The position numbers were made by a program, and so were the translations under genes. Shown piece by piece: positions 42,552 to 50,089 of a DNA stretch of 64,000 bases (position 1 is its first letter; each line of letters begins with the position of its first letter). A model generated the notes under the pieces. That model searched no databases and had not been told where the DNA came from. It saw only the letters and a program-made list of their open reading frames with translations. The DNA comes from Candidatus Woesebacteria bacterium RBG_16_42_24 (GTDB taxonomy: Bacteria; Patescibacteriota; Microgenomatia; UBA8517), in NCBI GenBank assembly GCA_001792115.1, contig MGFX01000007.1, positions 5,265 to 69,264 on the forward strand, written 5' to 3'.

Positions 42552-42586
42552 ATTCATCGCAATTTTAACCTGAAGGGCAGGCAAAC

Positions 42587-43648
42587 TCAAGATTGAATTT
42601 GTTTCCGACAGGAAGTTACTATCGCAAGCGAAATGCTGGTGGCAAGAAGCGACGATCCTCCTCCTGAAACAAGTGGTAAGGGAACACCGGTTATGGGTAG
42701 AATACCCATATTCATCCCGATATGCACAAATGTTTGGGCAAAAAGAGTTAAAAAAATTCCTGCCGTATACGCCCTCGCCGCAAAACTTCTAGGATCTGAA
42801 ATTACGCTTGAAATCCTCCAAAAAACCGCAAAAAGGCCTACCAGGATTAGTCCTGCTCCAACTAGACCCATCTCCTCGGCAATTGAAGCAAAAATAAAGT
42901 CCGTGTGCCGCTCGGGCAGGAATGCTAGTTGTGTTTGAACCCCCCGCCCCAATCCCCTACCGGTAAGCTTTCCAGAGCCAACAGAAATCATCGCTTGCAA
43001 GCTATTGTATCCCGCTCCATAGGGGTCGCTGCCGGGATTTATGAAAGTAATTATTCTTGCTTTTTGATAAGGGGCAAGAGCCTGCCAGGCAAGCGGCACG
43101 ATTACTATAAGTATTAGTCCCCCAAAAAGCAACAATTTTTTGTTTATTTCCGAAGCTAGTACTACGCCTATAAAGCCAACTAGTGTCAATATCGCCACCC
43201 CGAGTGAGGGTTGTACCAAAATAAGAAAAGCGGGCAGGGTAAGTAAGATTAGAGTATTTATAAATCTTTTTAAGTCAATCTTCTGGGATGTTAGGTAGTT
43301 GGCGAAATAAATAATTAAAAGCGGTCTAACTATTTCCGCCGGCTGAATAGTAAGAGGTCCAATTGGTATCCAACGAATTGCACCCCTGGTAACTTGTCCA
43401 ATCAAAAGCGGAGCCAAAAGAAGAAGAATCGAGAGTATATACAGATGTTTTGAAAAAAGCGAGAGAATTTCAAAATCGATATGAGAGAATATAATAAAGG
43501 CAACCACCGCGAGTGCCAAATATAAAAAATATACAGGGAAAAGAGAAGGAGCCAGAGAGCGAAGGTTAACCACACCAAAGACTACCAAAAAAATTGCTGC
43601 GAATAAGAGGATATAGTCAAAGCGGCGTGAGATTGAAAAACCTTTCAT
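42587..43648 (-). CDS. rodA: SEDS-family peptidoglycan glycosyltransferase, RodA-like (second SEDS paralog in the window)
   Basis: 10-TM FtsW/RodA/SpoVE signature region (ERHTDFIFASIAEEMGLVG...GILPITGVPLPLVSGGGSS). Called RodA because a separate ftsW lies next to murG. Confidence 0.75.
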   Translation of the reverse strand: MKGFSISRRFDYILLFAAIFLVVFGVVNLRSLAPSLFPVYFLYLALAVVAFIIFSHIDFEILSLFSKHLYILSILLLLAPLLIGQVTRGAIRWIPIGPLTIQPAEIVRPLLIIYFANYLTSQKIDLKRFINTLILLTLPAFLILVQPSLGVAILTLVGFIGVVLASEINKKLLLFGGLILIVIVPLAWQALAPYQKARIITFINPGSDPYGAGYNSLQAMISVGSGKLTGRGLGRGVQTQLAFLPERHTDFIFASIAEEMGLVGAGLILVGLFAVFWRISSVISDPRSFAARAYTAGIFLTLFAQTFVHIGMNMGILPITGVPLPLVSGGGSSLLATSISLAIVTSCRKQIQS

Positions 43649-43649
43649 C

Positions 43650-46580
43650 CTAACTCAATTTGCTTACCTTGAAATCTCCTTTTGTCAATTTGCCAATTAT
43701 AGCTTTAGATGTTACTCTTTGAATAAGATATTTGTTCATTGGCAGCCATGGTGTAGAAACGTTTATCTTTTGGGTAAGATCCATACCCATTTTTTTCCTT
43801 TCTTCCTGAATATCTCTAATAAGTTCTCGAGTTTTAGCTTCCTCTTCGAGTTCAGGTGTTATTTTAGTATCTAGTTTGTTATTTAACGTTTTCCCCTTCT
43901 TTAAGGTCCATTTTTTTATATTTAACTCATCTAATAAATAAGTCCTGAGATTATTACCAATTTCGAATGGAGCAGAAGTTTCTAAATAAGCTAATGGTTG
44001 TCTAACTGGAATTCCCTTTTCTTTTCTAATTGAGTGAACTTTCTCTACGACTAGCCTAAGATTCTGCATATCACTAATTAATTTGGCGTCAACATCAGCG
44101 GCTTTTGGCCAATCCGACAAATGGACCGATTCTTCCTCTGACAAATTTTTATAAATTATTTCAGCAATGAAAGGGGTAAATGGAGCAAGAAGTTTGGTTA
44201 AGGTAACAAGTAGCAAGTGACAAGTTGTATAGAATATATCTTTATCTTTTTCGGACTCCGCGGCTGGACCTATTCTATCTCGGGAACGCCTAACGTACCA
44301 AAGAGATAAATCATCGACAAATGCCTCAATGGCCCCACTCGCTTGATAAGCATCATATTTCTCAAGGGATTCTGTTACTTCCTTAATAGTTTGGTTGAGT
44401 CTCGAGAGGATCCATTTATCAAGTGGCGTCAGATTTGAGTTTTTCCCGCCTGCCGGCGGGGCAGGGAGTTTTCTAGTTTTTGATGGCTTCCATCTATCAA
44501 GATTCGCATAGGTGACAAAGAAGTTATAGACGTTCCAGAGTTTTAGATGAAATCTCCTTCTTGTTTCATCAGCAACATGATATCCGAATATAAGATTCTC
44601 TGATGGGTTCTGTCGAACATACATCCAGCGCATGACATCGACTCCAATTTTGTCTGCGCCTTCATTGAATTCGATTGCATTCCCCCATGATTTATGCATT
44701 GGACGGCCGTCTTCTCCAAAAAGCGTCGCAAAACCCAAAACGGATTTAAAGGGTTCACGATTTTCTAAGACAGTACTCATCGCCAAAAGTGAGTAAAACC
44801 AATTTTTAAACTGTCCCGGAAAGCTTTCTGTGATAAAGTCAGCCGGATACCACTTCTCAAACTCTTTTTTGTCTGTTAAGTAAAGCGGGGCACTTTTATT
44901 GTCAACCGAAACCGTGGAGAATGAAACAATCCCCGCGTCAAGCCATGGATTTCCTACATCCTGTATTCTTTCCATAACCTCCCCACACTTTGAGCACTTT
45001 ATTTTCACTTCGTCGATCCACGGCTTGTGAGGAGATTTGCCCTCAAATTTATCCCAACCCTCTGTCGCTTTTTGCCTTAATTCATCCTTTCCGCCAATCA
45101 CTTCAAAGTTTCCACATTTGCCACATACCCAAATGGGAAGAGCCAAACCCCAATAACGCTTTTTTGATATAAGCCAATCGTGCATATTTTTCAACCAGTC
45201 TAATTCCCTATCCAGTCCGAATTTTGGCAACCAGTTTATTTTCTTTGTGACTTCCATCATTTGCTCTCTCAACCCATCCATCGCGATGTACCATTCATCC
45301 ACCACCCTCCAAACAAGCTCGGTCTTGCAGCGCCAGCAGGCCGGGTATCTGTGTCTGTAAGAAACAATGTCGAAAAAGTACCTGCCTCCTTCTTTATCTT
45401 TGATGTAATCAAGAATTACTTCAGGGTGCTCTTTTGCATTTTTACCCGAGAATTCGCCCAAATCCGAAAGATAAGTTGCTTCCTCGTCTATAAGCTCGAT
45501 CACCGGAAGTTTTAGTTTCTTTCCAAGTTGAAAGTCTTCGCTTCCGGCTCCAGGGGCAACGTGCACAAGGCCTGTTCCTTCCTCTTCGCTGACCGGCAGA
45601 ATTTTTTCATCGGTCGCAACTACTTCATGAACATATTTTCCAAGTGATTTTTTTACCCTGACTAAACTATCGAATGGAGATTCATATTTGAATCCAGCTA
45701 ACTCTCGACCTTTCAATTTCTTTTCTAGAGTAAGCCCTAATCGCTTCGCCGCAAATTCAAGGAGATAATATTTATTTCCCGCAACTTTCCCAGTTGCAAC
45801 GACATAATCTTTGTCAGCGTCGATTGCGACAGCTACATTTCCTGGAAGGGTCCAGGGAGTCGTAGTCCAAACTAAAAGATACTCATTTCTCCTGCCCTTG
45901 ATCGGATATTCGATGTAGACGGAATCGTGAGTTGCCTCTTTATAATCTTCTGTGAGCATCTCGTGCTGGGAAATTGCGGTCCCGCAACGGGGACACCAGG
46001 GAACTGAATCTCGTCCTTTATAAATAAGACCGCGTTCATGGCACATTTTAAGAAAGTGCCAAATCATGTAGTTATTCTCATCCGAGAGGGTGTAGTAGGA
46101 GTTATCCCAATCCATAAAATAGCCCAAGCGTTTTGATTGCTCGGTTTGAATTCCGGCATATTTTTTTGCCCTCTCCTTACAAAGCTCTACAAAGCGCGCA
46201 ATTGAAGCTTTCTTGTCACCGGATACTAAATTCTCTATATCTCTTTTATTCTTTAACCCTAATTCTTTTTCAACTTCTACCTCAACCCAAAGACCTTGAC
46301 AATCAAAACCATTCTGAAATCTTTGCTTAAATCCCCGCATGTTATAGAAACGCTGCCAGAGATCTTTATAGGTCCTCCCCCATGCATGGTGAACTCCCAT
46401 GGGATTGTTGGCTGTAATGGGTCCGTCCAAGAAAGAGAAGTTTTTAGTAGAGTTTTTGTTTCTTTCTCTATACTTCTTAACCATTCCCGTAGTTTCCCAT
46501 TCTTTCAGGGTCTCCTTCTCCAAAGAAGGAAAGTCTACCTTGGGGTCAACAGCATCAAAAAAAGGCTTTTTGGCGGCCAT
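43650..46580 (-). CDS. ileS: Isoleucyl-tRNA synthetase
   Basis: Class I HIGH region (PITANNPMGVHHAWG), editing-domain insertion, NGFDCQGLWVEV, KMSKS-like PMHKSWGN, and C-terminal zinc-finger cysteines. Confidence 0.8.
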   Translation of the reverse strand: MAAKKPFFDAVDPKVDFPSLEKETLKEWETTGMVKKYRERNKNSTKNFSFLDGPITANNPMGVHHAWGRTYKDLWQRFYNMRGFKQRFQNGFDCQGLWVEVEVEKELGLKNKRDIENLVSGDKKASIARFVELCKERAKKYAGIQTEQSKRLGYFMDWDNSYYTLSDENNYMIWHFLKMCHERGLIYKGRDSVPWCPRCGTAISQHEMLTEDYKEATHDSVYIEYPIKGRRNEYLLVWTTTPWTLPGNVAVAIDADKDYVVATGKVAGNKYYLLEFAAKRLGLTLEKKLKGRELAGFKYESPFDSLVRVKKSLGKYVHEVVATDEKILPVSEEEGTGLVHVAPGAGSEDFQLGKKLKLPVIELIDEEATYLSDLGEFSGKNAKEHPEVILDYIKDKEGGRYFFDIVSYRHRYPACWRCKTELVWRVVDEWYIAMDGLREQMMEVTKKINWLPKFGLDRELDWLKNMHDWLISKKRYWGLALPIWVCGKCGNFEVIGGKDELRQKATEGWDKFEGKSPHKPWIDEVKIKCSKCGEVMERIQDVGNPWLDAGIVSFSTVSVDNKSAPLYLTDKKEFEKWYPADFITESFPGQFKNWFYSLLAMSTVLENREPFKSVLGFATLFGEDGRPMHKSWGNAIEFNEGADKIGVDVMRWMYVRQNPSENLIFGYHVADETRRRFHLKLWNVYNFFVTYANLDRWKPSKTRKLPAPPAGGKNSNLTPLDKWILSRLNQTIKEVTESLEKYDAYQASGAIEAFVDDLSLWYVRRSRDRIGPAAESEKDKDIFYTTCHLLLVTLTKLLAPFTPFIAEIIYKNLSEEESVHLSDWPKAADVDAKLISDMQNLRLVVEKVHSIRKEKGIPVRQPLAYLETSAPFEIGNNLRTYLLDELNIKKWTLKKGKTLNNKLDTKITPELEEEAKTRELIRDIQEERKKMGMDLTQKINVSTPWLPMNKYLIQRVTSKAIIGKLTKGDFKVSKLS

Positions 46581-46602
46581 ATTGAACTTATTCTACAACA
46601 AA

Positions 46603-46640
46603 CCTAGTGGATTTTGCGAAGGAGAGCGGAAAATTTCGTT
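46603..46640. repeat. Tail-module repeat copy A (within the Nudix 3' end; encodes ...FSALLRKIH-stop)
   Basis: Minus-strand aaattttccgctctccttcgcaaaatccactagg shares a ccttcgcaaaatccactagg core with the ftsZ 3' end (copy C) and tccgctct/ccttcgcaaaatccac with copy B. Confidence 0.7.
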
Positions 46641-47125
46641 ATCGTTTCTAATATTCCCCTCTTAAAATTTTCAGGGTGAGCTTTAGCCATAGCAGTAATT
46701 GTAACTACATCCAACCATTCTAGTTTGTCGATTTCCTGTTTATTAAATTCTCCGATATCGTCGGCAATGTCGACTCTGTAAACCATAGCAAAACACCCAA
46801 CACCGTCTTTTGGAGTCATTTTTCCCAATTCCTGAATCTTAGCTTCTTTAATACTCAATTCCTCGTTTAACCCCCGCTTGGCTGCCTCAAGATAACTCTC
46901 TCCCGAACGAACATGCTCTCCGCACGAAAAGTCGTAACATCCGGGAAAGATTTTTTTCTTCATTGACCGTGTCGGTAATAATATTTTATTTTCGGCGTTT
47001 AAAACAAAAATATTAACCACCCGGACATTATGCTCAAGCCCCCTCTTCCAGATATTGTTCCTTGTATCACGACCGACGACTTTATCGTTCCTATCTACAA
47101 TATCTAAATATTCTTCGTCTTCCAT
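46604..47125 (-). CDS. Nudix hydrolase carrying an FtsZ-type C-terminal tail (LLRKIH)
   Basis: Nudix box GEHVRSGESYLEAAKRGLNEELSI. The last 9 codons are encoded by the repeat module shared with ftsZ. Confidence 0.75.
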   Translation of the reverse strand: MEDEEYLDIVDRNDKVVGRDTRNNIWKRGLEHNVRVVNIFVLNAENKILLPTRSMKKKIFPGCYDFSCGEHVRSGESYLEAAKRGLNEELSIKEAKIQELGKMTPKDGVGCFAMVYRVDIADDIGEFNKQEIDKLEWLDVVTITAMAKAHPENFKRGILETITKFSALLRKIH

Positions 47126-47149
47126 AGGCTAACTATATTATATACGTCA

Positions 47150-47190
47150 ATTTTGTGGATTTTGCGAAGGAAGAGCCGGGATCTATTTGA
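47150..47190. repeat. Tail-module repeat copy B (just after the stop of the 47183..47572 gene; frameshifted and degenerate)
   Basis: Minus-strand ttcaaatagatcccggctcttccttcgcaaaatccacaaaattga matches atcccggccttccttcgcaaaatccac of ftsZ except for a 1-nt indel and loss of the terminal cactag. Confidence 0.7.
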
Positions 47191-47572
47191 AAGCAACCAT
47201 ATGTTTTTCCAATACCTCATTAAAATCCAACGCTGCGTCGGTCTCCGAGGCGCCTATCTCTGCCAAAGCATTCAATCTCGGTTGTACCTTGGGATACTCC
47301 TCGTAAAAATATGGATTATCCGGATTCAAACCCCGGGTGGTTATCGTTGAAAAGCGGGATACGAGAAGAATGCTTATCGCTTGCCCTTTGTCAATCAAGA
47401 TTTTCCCGGAATCGGGGTCCGTATGGCTTCGGATATACAAATCCAGAGCATCCGATGGGGCTAGAACAAAAGTTTCGTCCGTTTGGGGATTACGGAATCC
47501 TATTTTTCCCCCTTCAACTGGGAATACCTGGTATTCTCTAAGCTCAGCATTCGGAATAAATTCATGAGTCAT
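47183..47572 (-). CDS. Hypothetical protein
   Basis: 129 aa, no recognisable motif; lies between ftsZ and the Nudix gene on the same strand. A degenerate tail module follows its stop codon. Confidence 0.4.
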   Translation of the reverse strand: MTHEFIPNAELREYQVFPVEGGKIGFRNPQTDETFVLAPSDALDLYIRSHTDPDSGKILIDKGQAISILLVSRFSTITTRGLNPDNPYFYEEYPKVQPRLNALAEIGASETDAALDFNEVLEKHMVAFK

Positions 47573-47574
47573 AG

Positions 47575-47615
47575 CCTAGTGGATTTTGCGAAGGAAGGCC
47601 GGGATTTCAAATTTC
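47575..47615. repeat. Tail-module repeat copy C (ftsZ 3' end; encodes the conserved FtsZ C-terminal peptide [10 protein letters not shown]-stop)
   Basis: Minus-strand gaaatcccggccttccttcgcaaaatccactagg. IPAFLRK is the canonical FtsZ C-terminal partner-binding peptide. Confidence 0.75.
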
Positions 47616-48760
47616 TCGCCAAACATATCTTGTTCTTCTTCCTCCTCCGGTGGCTCCTCTGGCGGCCTTTTTTCTTCTTCCTCTTCCTCGTCCCCCTGGG
47701 CCTCTAGGGCTTGCGGGCCGGGAGCTTCCCGCCTCTCACTCACTACCCCCTGAATTACCGGAGGTTCTGGTTTTGGCTGGGAGATTTGTGCAAGTCGTGC
47801 TCTTGTTTCGTCAAACCCAGTGGCAATTACCGTAATTCTTACCTGGTCAACAAGTTCGTCTTTAATAACGGCCCCGAAAATAATATTGGCGTCAGCGTCA
47901 GCCGAGCTTGAAATAATCCTTGCAGCTTCGTCCACTTCAAACATTGTTAAGTCGGCACCCCCCGCAACATTAAAGAGTACCCCTCTTGCTCCCTCGATAG
48001 AGAGGTCAAGAAGCGGCGAGGATACCGCGGCACGTGCGGCCATTTGAGCTCGATTTTCTCCAACACCAGTTCCAATTCCCAGAAGAGCTGTTCCAGCATT
48101 TTGCATGATGGTTCTAACGTCAGCAAAGTCGACGTTAATTAGCCCCGGAGTCGTAATAATATCGGCAATCCCGCCAACCGCCTGCCCCAGAACCGAGTCA
48201 ACCACTTTAAAGGCTTCAAGAAGTGTCATTTTCCTATCAATCACATCCATCAACCTCTGATTTGGAATAACAATTAATGTGTCAACCGACTCTCTCAATT
48301 TCTCAACACCGTCCTCGGCGATTACCATTCTTCTTGTACCTTCAAAAGCAAAAGGTTTAGTTACAATACCCACAGTTAGGGCTCCGGACTCCTTTGCTAG
48401 TTTTGCGATAACAGGAGCCGCCCCCGTCCCGGTTCCTCCTCCCATTCCTCCCGTAATAAAAACCATGTCGGAGTCTAATAACAGTTCTTTTATTTTTTCG
48501 GTCGATTCTTCTGCTGCCTGTTGACCCTGCTGCGGGTCTCCCCCTACCCCTAACCCCTTAGTCAGCTTTTCTCCAATTTGAAGTTTTGTCGGAGCTTTAT
48601 TGGCAAGAAGAACCTGCGCGTCGGTATTAACTGCAATAAACTCCACGCCGTTAACGCTATTTGTCTCAAGCATTGAGGAAACGGCGTTTCCCCCACCACC
48701 GCCAACTCCAATTACTTTAATCTTCGCAATTCTTGCTGAATCTGGTTTAACGAGCGCCAT
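47576..48760 (-). CDS. ftsZ: Cell division GTPase FtsZ
   Basis: Tubulin signature GGGTGTG ([16 protein letters not shown]), T7 loop, acidic linker and C-terminal peptide IPAFLRKIH. Confidence 0.9.
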
Positions 48761-48817: not shown

Positions 48818-50089
48818 TTAGGGCAAGAGGTTTTTGATAGCTTCGACTAACTTTCCAGCTATCCCTTTTGTGGGTAGTTTTATTCTTTTGCCTATACTTG
48901 TCAAGCCCTCTTTTCCCGGCTCGTTAGCTCCATAAAGAATCAAGCCAACGCAAGTCGAAAAAGAAGGATTAATTACGTCATCAATGAGGCCTCCAATACC
49001 TTTTGGTTTCCCAATTCTAACAGGCAGTGAAAGCATTCGACGTGCTGCATCTTCTATGCCTACGGTTTCTGCTCCTCCGCCCGTTACCACAACTCCAGAG
49101 GGAACTCTATTGGCAACGTCCGCTTTATCAAGCTCAAGTCGCACCATTGTAAAAATTTCATTCAAGCGCGGCCTTATAATTCCATCTACCAGGGTTCTTT
49201 TTGAAACATTCTTTACCTCGGGAACACCTAAGCTTTCTAAATCCAAAGTGTCTCCTTCTTCCTTTGTCTTCTTGTCTTTTTTTGCCGAATCCGAAAGAAA
49301 AACTTTAATTTTTTCCGCCGACTCCAAGGACACCCTTAAACCTATAGCTAAATCATTGGTTACATTCTTGGCACCAATCGGAATAACTCCAGAATAGGTA
49401 ATCGCTCCGTCGATAAATGCAGCTACCGAAGTCGTTCCACCACCAATATCGACTACCACGCACCCCAACTCTTTCTCGGTACTCGAAAGAATAGCTTCAG
49501 CTGATGCTAAAGCGGAAAAAACCAATCCTTCTGTCTCTATTCCAACCTCTTTAGCCGCCTTCCTCAAATTTTTGATGGCTGCAAAGGACGCTGTAATTAT
49601 GTGGGTGTCGACTTCAAGTCTCACTCCGCTCATTCCAATCGCGTCTTTCACTCCAGCCTCTCCGTCAACAATAAACTCGCGGGGAACCACATGAATGACC
49701 TCTCGAGAAGAAGGAAGCGAAACTGCCGAAGCTCCTTCAATCACACGGTCAACGTCGTCTTGGGTTATCTCCCCATCAGGATCCGAAACAGCAACGACTC
49801 CGTGGGAATTTTGTGATGCCATATGTGCCCCGGAAACGGCAATATATGCACTGTCGAGATTGTATCCCGCCATCCTCTCAGCCGCCTCAATAGAAGCAAT
49901 TGCCACCTCAACAGTCTCTTCAATATCAACTATCTGGCCTTTTTTCACTCCACGAGAGGGAACCGCTGCAACCCCTACGATATTAATACTTACCTCAAAG
50001 GTGGTCGGGTCGGTAACGACTTGAGCAATCAAAGTCGCCACTTTAGAAGACCCGAGCTCAACTGCCGCGACTATTCGATTTTTAGCCAT
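48818..50089 (-). CDS. ftsA: Cell division protein FtsA
   Basis: Actin-fold ATPase with SHS2 insertion: VAAVELGSSKVATLIAQV N-terminus, phosphate-2 VVDIGGGTT, and C-terminal GGGAE-like VVTGGGAE. Confidence 0.85.
   Translation of the reverse strand: MAKNRIVAAVELGSSKVATLIAQVVTDPTTFEVSINIVGVAAVPSRGVKKGQIVDIEETVEVAIASIEAAERMAGYNLDSAYIAVSGAHMASQNSHGVVAVSDPDGEITQDDVDRVIEGASAVSLPSSREVIHVVPREFIVDGEAGVKDAIGMSGVRLEVDTHIITASFAAIKNLRKAAKEVGIETEGLVFSALASAEAILSSTEKELGCVVVDIGGGTTSVAAFIDGAITYSGVIPIGAKNVTNDLAIGLRVSLESAEKIKVFLSDSAKKDKKTKEEGDTLDLESLGVPEVKNVSKRTLVDGIIRPRLNEIFTMVRLELDKADVANRVPSGVVVTGGGAETVGIEDAARRMLSLPVRIGKPKGIGGLIDDVINPSFSTCVGLILYGANEPGKEGLTSIGKRIKLPTKGIAGKLVEAIKNLLP

Follow-up and report, generated by a model that had tools for sequence, protein, structure and literature searches.

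Why should three neighbouring genes share the same few nucleotides at their 3' ends, when those nucleotides encode the C-terminal peptide of the division protein FtsZ? The question is raised by a stretch of 64,000 nucleotides (nt) from Candidatus Woesebacteria bacterium RBG_16_42_24 (contig MGFX01000007.1), the whole of which is called the window here, in which ftsZ is followed on the minus strand by an orphan gene of 129 amino acids (aa), a Nudix gene and ileS. An initial annotation had noticed related copies of one element at the ends of the first three of these genes and had proposed that a divisome-targeting tail was grafted by recombination. We read the three copies as junction repeats, the remains of two gene insertions that took place one after the other at a recombination hotspot separating ftsZ from ileS, and we assign this reading a probability of roughly 70%. 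The features on which it rests are, from ftsZ towards ileS:

47576-48760, minus strand: ftsZ, 394 aa, with Pfam Tubulin and FtsZ_C
47576-47608 (core 47579-47595), minus strand: copy C, at the end of ftsZ, encoding the FtsZ C-terminal peptide and a TAG stop
47183-47572, minus strand: 129-aa orphan open reading frame (ORF), ending HMVAFK-stop, the putative first inserted gene
47155-47182, minus strand: copy B, a non-coding decayed tail (ATCCCGGCTCTTCCTTCGCAAAATCCAC) directly after the TAG of the 129-aa gene
46607-47154, minus strand: 548-bp indel unit comprising the Nudix leader, the Nudix gene and one core, bounded by cores B and A
46604-47125, minus strand: Nudix gene, 173 aa, ending TKFSALLRKIH-stop (Pfam NUDIX, 3.8e-13)
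46603-46630, minus strand: copy A, codons SALLRKIH with TAG and G, supplying the Nudix C-terminus and stop
43650-46580, minus strand: ileS, the conserved right flank of the hotspot

The 17-nt core TCCTTCGCAAAATCCAC (minus strand) has three occurrences and no more: one closes ftsZ, one comes just after the 129-aa gene and one makes up the last codons of the Nudix gene. The 16-mer CCTTCGCAAAATCCAC was likewise found exactly three times in the 64 kb (46607-46622, 47155-47170 and 47579-47594), with a mean of 0.07 in shuffled sequence, and the total of four matches at two or fewer mismatches was reached in none of 100 shuffles. A repeat search returned the same family, with copy spacings of 548 and 424 nt, so the claim of three related copies at consecutive gene ends was borne out. 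In IMG/VR the 17-mer gave 10 single matches, uninspected and about as many as were estimated by chance for a collection of that size. In the window's FtsZ an acidic disordered linker leads into the consensus peptide, with which the protein ends; the same ending was present in 87 of the 120 closest FtsZ homologs, and nearly all 120 kept IPAFLRK. The repeated element is thus the coding sequence of the FtsZ C-terminal peptide, as had been recognised.

Copies C and A were identical across 21 nt (TCCTTCGCAAAATCCAC followed by TAG and G; 46603-46623 in copy A), and the Nudix ORF ends within its copy in the ftsZ frame. The identity runs through the stop codon, as first described, and reaches 1 nt past it rather than 3. 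A single inserted base apart, copy B agrees with copy C across 28 nt; its alignment to the ftsZ end (score 48) was reached in none of 300 shuffles. Behind the TAG of the 129-aa gene it reads ATC CCG GCT, or I P A, before the +1 indel; it holds no stop codon, and its homology stops at CAC. Copy B does therefore look like a decayed in-frame tail. Upstream of the core, similarity of copy A to ftsZ (GAAATTT) was insignificant, being reached in 658 of 2000 shuffles, and that of copy B (GAA.AA.ATATG.TTG; 73 of 2000) was only suggestive.

Empty and occupied junctions between ftsZ and ileS

Relatives were gathered by look-ups of close FtsZ proteins, by a scan of species-representative genomes and by a metagenome scan for the in-frame tail pattern (73 loci); individual loci and contigs are given by L numbers. 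In this Woesebacteria clade ileS is usually the next gene after ftsZ, and the gap between them is variable: 16-56 nt in about 15 loci and 200-1825 nt in others. Empty sites include L109, L187-189, L167, L168 and L177, the FtsZ proteins of L109 and L187-189 being 90-94% identical to that of the window. The long gaps hold unrelated genes, among them the 129-aa orphan, a 176/180-aa DprA/SLOG-like protein, an SLT transglycosylase, a MetK-like protein and several orphans, as well as defence-like genes (a PD-(D/E)XK nuclease, an HNH protein and an AAA_21 plus RloB pair). The ftsZ-ileS junction is a hypervariable insertion hotspot. Defence-like cargo was seen in L142, where it lies about 90-1780 nt past the ftsZ stop, and also in L131, L136, L143 and L153. 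The closest relatives by FtsZ protein (L101/L105, 95%) carry a different gene, and three lineages are about equally distant in nucleotides.

L009 is more distant (FtsZ about 80% identical in protein) and carries the same 129-aa gene. In L009 and L158 the order is ftsZ-TAG-GCT-ATG, the 129-aa gene, TAG-AACGCTTCT-TCCTTCGCAAAATCCAC-TAGGTTTGTTGTAGAATAAGTTCAAT and the ATG of ileS, with no Nudix gene, and their single downstream copy has the left context of copy B and the right context of copy A. The Nudix unit is therefore a 548-bp indel between copies B and A. Copy A together with its next 23 nt resembles the unoccupied junction of L167/L168 (...CGCAAAATCCA(C/T)TAA, GTTTGTTGTAAAAT... and ATG), which suggests that the copy nearest ileS would be the displaced original end of ftsZ. 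The 129-aa gene was 91% identical in nucleotides between the window and L009, whereas flanking ftsZ and ileS were 73% and 71% identical; identity was complete (100%) in the relic copy and spacer and for about 35 nt into ileS. This difference between module and flanks argues that the 129-aa module moved laterally, with the left boundary of the transferred segment falling within the ftsZ tail.

The arrangement recurred. At least six lineages each had a different inserted gene and, behind it, the 3' end of their own ftsZ once more, often in decayed form; besides the window, these were:

L117: 179-aa gene, 2 nt past the ftsZ stop, with an exact 17-nt copy (TACGTAAAATACACTAA) at the gene end, then a 66-aa gene and ileS
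L139: 203-aa gene, then ATTTCTGCATTTTTCCGTAAAATCCGTTAA, matching at 25/30 and reading ISAFFRKIR-stop (decayed)
L169: 67-aa gene, then a copy matching at 18/24
L134: 121-aa gene, then a complete second tail of 17 codons
L105/L190: 180-aa gene, with a segment of about 33 nt duplicated over stop and spacer relative to the empty site of L187 (a before/after pair)

In shuffle tests (300 each) the copies of L117, L139, L169 and L134 were significant, L169 being the weakest; L105/L190 lay outside this test. The repeat always matched the genome's own ftsZ sequence, and its right edge was nearly always the ftsZ stop, while its left edge ranged from -17 to -54; by event, the lengths were 17, 21-23, about 22, 28-30, about 33 and 54 nt. 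We rejected as a general rule that every insertion duplicates the overlap of ftsZ end and ileS promoter, as Smith-Waterman alignment was negative at most other occupied sites. The extra copies of L139, L169 and L117 are out of frame with the preceding gene, and that of L139 shows non-synonymous decay. We take the extra copies in these five other lineages to be non-coding scars behind unrelated genes. The earlier view that the copies arose by recombination is supported.

From the observed repeats, indel polymorphism, hotspot and recurrence, and from the tail-less Nudix homologs described below, we infer an order of events and a mechanism. Ancestrally, ileS would have stood some 20-40 nt behind ftsZ. 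Each insertion would place a foreign gene behind an intact ftsZ end and displace a partial old end downstream, where it would stay attached to the ileS leader. Arrival of the 129-aa gene would first have produced copy C and one downstream copy, as in L009; the 548-bp Nudix unit would then, in the window's lineage only, have entered that downstream copy and split it into B and A. The Nudix ORF would have lost its last native residues in the process, so as to read in frame into the relic and borrow its codons and stop. The conserved ftsZ tail most likely served recombination as a short patch of homology, and two routes could have led to this. A donor consisting of an ftsZ 3' end and a gene might be anchored in ftsZ and closed by an illegitimate joint inside the resident ftsZ end, or an excised circle with a tail patch might re-integrate through a single crossover; either route would yield an intact ftsZ end, a new gene and a truncated resident end.

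The variable left edge with a near-constant right edge argues for such homology-based or illegitimate joints. A rival proposal is that the ftsZ end is a site where a trans-acting recombinase stacks single-gene cassettes in the manner of an integron, each ending in a copy of the site. Such a system would account for the pattern in at least six lineages, for tight single-gene units of which two are stacked in the window, for repeats that abut the cassette's stop codon and for the lateral transfer of the 129-aa module. It is improbable, given that the repeats vary from 17 to 54 nt and consist of resident ftsZ sequence rather than a conserved cassette-borne site, that no inverted-repeat structure was present at the copies, that most occupied sites have no repeat and that the gene content of the locus included no integrase or recombinase within 6 kb either side of the inserts. 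The fixed right edge, the variable left edge, the lineage-specific repeats and the lack of a recombinase within 6 kb all speak against a single site-specific system, and a dedicated site-specific recombinase is unlikely. We give similarly little credence to the broader idea that the last codons of ftsZ are the attachment site of an unrecognised cassette-shuffling system, whether driven by a recombinase or by a short-homology pathway, whose fusions occasionally yield proteins with an FtsZ-like partner-binding peptide.

Several observations weigh against the insertion account itself. Around two thirds of the occupied sites lack a junction repeat. The missing stop codon of copy B is not predicted by simple models, and the spacing of 0-1 nt between inserted gene and repeat in several lineages is tidier than random illegitimate joints would be. 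Although sequence directly upstream has diverged, perfect identity holds across the cores of 17-21 nt, a combination that calls for gene conversion, a recent origin or selective constraint on the core. Moreover, no recombination intermediate, donor locus or same-species empty Nudix site was found among the relatives gathered.

The Nudix C-terminus and the 129-aa protein

If the insertion account is right, the Nudix tail should be a by-product. The Nudix protein is of the YfcD/DR0079/IDI-like type (NCBIfam YfcD-like; PDB 1q27), and a search of 5.8 billion proteins yielded about 70 homologs, the best of them 62% identical. An LRKIH-type tail was present on none of the 70 homologs listed (about 64 of them full-length), so that half of what the initial annotation held would speak against its proposal did obtain, orthologs lacking the tail; as for the other half, the 17-mer had no more than its three copies within the 64-kb window and is not a dispersed repeat there. 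Full-length homologs have about 160-192 residues (one has 266), and most end in a ...KFKxDFxxVLxWYxKKFKK helix or similar; the three genomic contexts checked were unrelated places, one of them archaeal-looking and none near ftsZ. The window's protein follows the family as far as ...ITKF, after which SALLRKIH replaces roughly the last six native residues (...KKFKK). All 23 contigs read with this Nudix gene encode the same protein sequence, and the eight retrieved as DNA were near-identical across the locus, save for the chimeric 5' part of L008. Judged by these comparisons, the Nudix gene is a lineage-specific foreign insertion. The guanine-cytosine profile carried no foreign-DNA signal for the inserts.

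L008, L133 and L010 were considered as variant strains and discarded, since 100% identity in them switches abruptly to unrelated or strongly diverged sequence. In these contigs (L008:1-4880; L133:835-1417; L010) the change falls within ftsZ, within the Nudix gene or near the 129-aa gene, and the three appear to be chimeric metagenome assemblies.

The conserved C-terminal peptide of FtsZ is the docking site for FtsA, ZipA, SepF, MinC and others. Copy C is this peptide, and its coding sequence gave rise to copies B and A, which is what made a functional graft attractive: an FtsZ-type tail would dock the Nudix enzyme, and formerly the 129-aa protein, on FtsA or another partner, leading to recruitment to the Z-ring or competition with FtsZ. 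The graft is indeed in the ftsZ frame and keeps L-R-K-I-H with a hydrophobic F-x-x-L-L-R-K pattern, copy B is in frame for its first three codons, and FtsA is encoded beside ftsZ (upstream neighbour, 48818-50089, minus strand). However, the Nudix end reads K-F-S-A-L-L-R-K-I-H, in which the I, P and F of E-I-P-A-F-L-R-K are replaced or deleted, so that the docking consensus (D/E)-I-P-x-F-L-R-K is absent although its I-P and F are conserved in nearly all of the closest FtsZ tails. Nor does a flexible linker present it: in the AlphaFold model (36 homologs, predicted local distance difference test (pLDDT) 91.9) the C-terminal helix of residues 158-170 (pLDDT about 92) runs on through the graft, and confidence is low in the last 3 residues only. 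The tail is unconserved across the homologs, copy B is untranslated, and the copies of L139, L169 and L117 do not share the frame of the gene before them, that of L139 reading a decayed ISAFFRKIR.

A further point in favour of a functional tail comes from L134, where the 121-aa gene is parted from a complete second tail by one in-frame TAG (L134:1149-1219; also L153:1-67), such that the tail can be read as a 23-codon mini-ORF. Some 11 differences separate the two L134 tails, none of which changes an amino acid, and the differences between L134 and L153 are synonymous as well. Selection on the second tail or mini-ORF was rejected as an explanation, because the orthologous copy in L153 has its match in the genuine ftsZ end of L164 and the synonymous differences are better explained by working ftsZ ends of different lineages. 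Grafting of a divisome-targeting module for its function is consequently very improbable, and that part of the initial annotation found no support; were the tail functional after all, it would represent a natural, exon-shuffling-like transfer of a docking peptide in bacteria. The Nudix tail would be an accidental, roughly neutral exchange of one amphipathic basic helix end for another, which may be why it was tolerated.

The 129-aa gene begins 3 nt past the ftsZ stop. Its protein had no Pfam or NCBIfam match and only its own cluster in libraries of 5.8e9 and 1.84e9 proteins; word-based and full HMMER searches returned that cluster and spurious repeat-protein matches, and nothing else. Its AlphaFold model was of low confidence (pLDDT 63.5), and a Foldseek search of it against the PDB gave nothing at E below 1. 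Divergence from L009 per codon position was 0.054/0.031/0.185, a pattern which indicates that the gene is protein-coding and constrained. Its last 14 residues (DFNEVLEKHMVAFK; 47186-47227, minus strand) resemble the native C-terminus of the Nudix family (DFPEVLEWYIKKFK), the very ending that the window's own Nudix protein has lost.

This resemblance raises the possibility that a unit of Nudix-like gene plus tail copy was duplicated in tandem by unequal crossing-over, leaving the 129-aa gene as a truncated and strongly diverged Nudix paralog. The 14-residue match scored 10.8 bits against the family's position-specific scoring matrix, a value reached by 2 of 36,343 background 14-mers, one of which was the segment itself; weak collinear tblastn alignments linked the 129-aa protein to Nudix residues 88-160, and the 3' ends of both genes aligned weakly in DNA (score reached in 40 of 2000 shuffles). 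Against this, profile-profile comparison with hhalign gave a probability of 0.2%, the 129-aa protein scored below zero with the hidden Markov model of the Nudix family, and a chance 14-mer elsewhere in the window scored higher, at 13.6 bits. L009 has the 129-aa gene alone, and protein identity of about 24% does not fit 100% identical cores unless gene conversion had homogenised them. We therefore rejected overall homology of the two proteins, the likeness being suggestive at the last 14 residues only, and hold tandem duplication to be improbable.

The sequence in front of ileS and the wider neighbourhood

The perfect identity of the cores directs attention to what they might do where they now lie. 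Two further features stand next to them:

47126-47154, minus strand: Nudix leader, with TATAAT 11 nt before the ATG and 12 nt after the core, read from sequence as a putative promoter part
46581-46602, minus strand: ftsZ-ileS spacer, whose TAGAAT box stands 9 nt ahead of the ileS start codon, a putative leaderless-type ileS promoter

The last 20 nt or so of ftsZ might double as a -35 or UP part of the promoter of the next gene, so that a copy would be needed before ileS and before the Nudix gene. Such a cis-regulatory role would explain the intact core and is compatible with insertion. The layout is similar at both places (core-11 nt-TAGAAT-9 nt-ATG for ileS; core-12 nt-TATAAT-11 nt-ATG for Nudix), and TAnAAT stands 1-11 nt before the ileS ATG in 30 of 36 distinct upstream regions (6-11 nt in 28, 1-2 nt in two), which suggests that ileS mRNA would be leaderless or near-leaderless. 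Between the window and L009, relic and spacer were 100% conserved over 44 nt, against an 18.5% difference at third codon positions of the adjoining gene. The -35-like hexamer is weak, however (TTCGCA, with a 19-nt spacer), and promoter-scan matches were at chance (4 found against 2.8 expected, including TCCACA-16-TATAGT before Nudix). The distance from ftsZ stop to -10 box also varies widely across other empty sites, copy C has no -10 box behind it, and the L117 repeat has no -35-like sequence. The relic may have been kept as the upstream part of a leaderless-type promoter, but this stays a tentative and, on balance, unlikely explanation of the copies. The initial annotation's alternative, a 3'-end RNA signal, found no footing: none of the copies carries a terminator-like hairpin, the sole such site in 46400-48000 lying inside the 129-aa gene, and Rfam (46000-48000, E up to 1) gave no match at the copies.

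Beyond the copies, a conserved TGT(A/T)GTA(A/C)AAT-AGCTTCA box precedes ileS (window 46581-46602; upstream regions of L101-L182). Some relatives have a ftsZ-ileS leader of 200-300 nt containing GGTGGTACCGCG (L043:7263-7410), which the window's lineage lacks; the Rfam T-box model scored 33 bits on the L043 leader against a gathering threshold of 93 (E 8e-6, in a small search).

Across the locus, identity was 100% with L001, a 12.5-kb metagenome contig from Rifle groundwater, and 99.99% with L005, a contig of a Candidatus Woesebacteria metagenome-assembled genome (Microgenomates, Candidate Phyla Radiation (CPR); GCA_001793175.1), and the window's FtsZ was 100% identical to that of Rifle groundwater Candidatus Woesebacteria. 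Within 6 kb lie mraY, ftsW, murG, an ftsQ-like gene, ftsA, ftsZ, the 129-aa gene, the Nudix gene, ileS, rodA, those for L21 and L27, parB and a signal peptidase gene. The gene directly 3' of ileS is a second member of the FtsW/RodA family (window about 42580-43648, minus strand; L001:9478-10539), additional to the ftsW upstream of murG, and the order ftsZ-ileS-rodA is kept in relatives. Another 12.5-kb contig, L002, differed from the window at two bases in all, both within the ftsZ tail (L002:5521-5550), which change IPAFLRKIH to IPAFLGQIH (CGCAAA to GGCCAA); this could reflect genuine variation, conversion or a faulty assembly. An FtsZ-tail-like peptide, PIFIRKIH, is encoded some 2.2 kb upstream of where ftsZ ends (L011:4889-4912; L119:12496-12519), by position inside ftsA.

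Relation to known integration systems

Insertion thus offers an evolutionary account in place of a functional divisome-targeting story. An essential, strongly conserved patch of 30 nt at the end of ftsZ would be a place where accessory genes repeatedly land and are exchanged, leaving partial gene-end footprints behind. For annotation, this means that gene-end repeats and chimeric C-termini beside core genes should be read first as insertion scars. For gene flow in the CPR, it provides an alignable case of single-gene gain and swap where classical mobile elements are few, and for protein evolution an example of how a new C-terminus may arise through read-through into the relic of a neighbouring gene. 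Our literature searches found no report of this arrangement, and we compared it with known systems.

Genomic islands and prophages integrate at the 3' ends of tRNA and tmRNA genes and of some protein genes, leaving att repeats. Here too the repeated sequence is the target gene's own 3' end; a fresh copy of that end at the proximal junction keeps the gene whole, and a displaced partial copy marks the distal one. Empty and occupied sites likewise coexist among relatives (L009 without the Nudix unit, L109 and L187 empty, L105/L190 occupied). In contrast, the inserts here are single genes of 0.4-0.6 kb without an integrase, and the repeat, instead of having a core of constant length, spans 17-54 nt and matches each genome's ftsZ rather than a fixed element-borne site. 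Integron cassettes are similar in being compact single-ORF units arranged head to tail, each with a copy of a repeated site; they differ in that the ftsZ-ileS junction has no IntI and no attC-type imperfect inverted repeat, and its site is the end of a coding gene which differs between genomes.

Hotspots of horizontal transfer between conserved core genes were reportedly described by Oliveira, Touchon, Cury and Rocha in 2017. The junction is alike in that ftsZ and ileS are syntenic around variable accessory genes, including nuclease and ATPase defence-like ones, without mobile-element genes, and in that there are signs of modules being exchanged by recombination in the flanks. What sets it apart is the left homology arm, a tail-coding patch of only some 30-45 nt that several insertions have duplicated. 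Homology-facilitated illegitimate recombination reportedly occurs in naturally transformable bacteria (de Vries and Wackernagel, 2002; Prudhomme et al., 2002), and one anchor in ftsZ combined with a variable joint would fix the right edge of the repeat and vary the left. A possible GAAATTT microhomology at the Nudix joint would fit such a joint but is statistically insignificant. Taken together, the hotspot is a variant of the known 3'-end integration with direct repeats, in which single genes without an integrase, in streamlined CPR genomes, share the codons of the FtsZ docking peptide as their recurrent junction.

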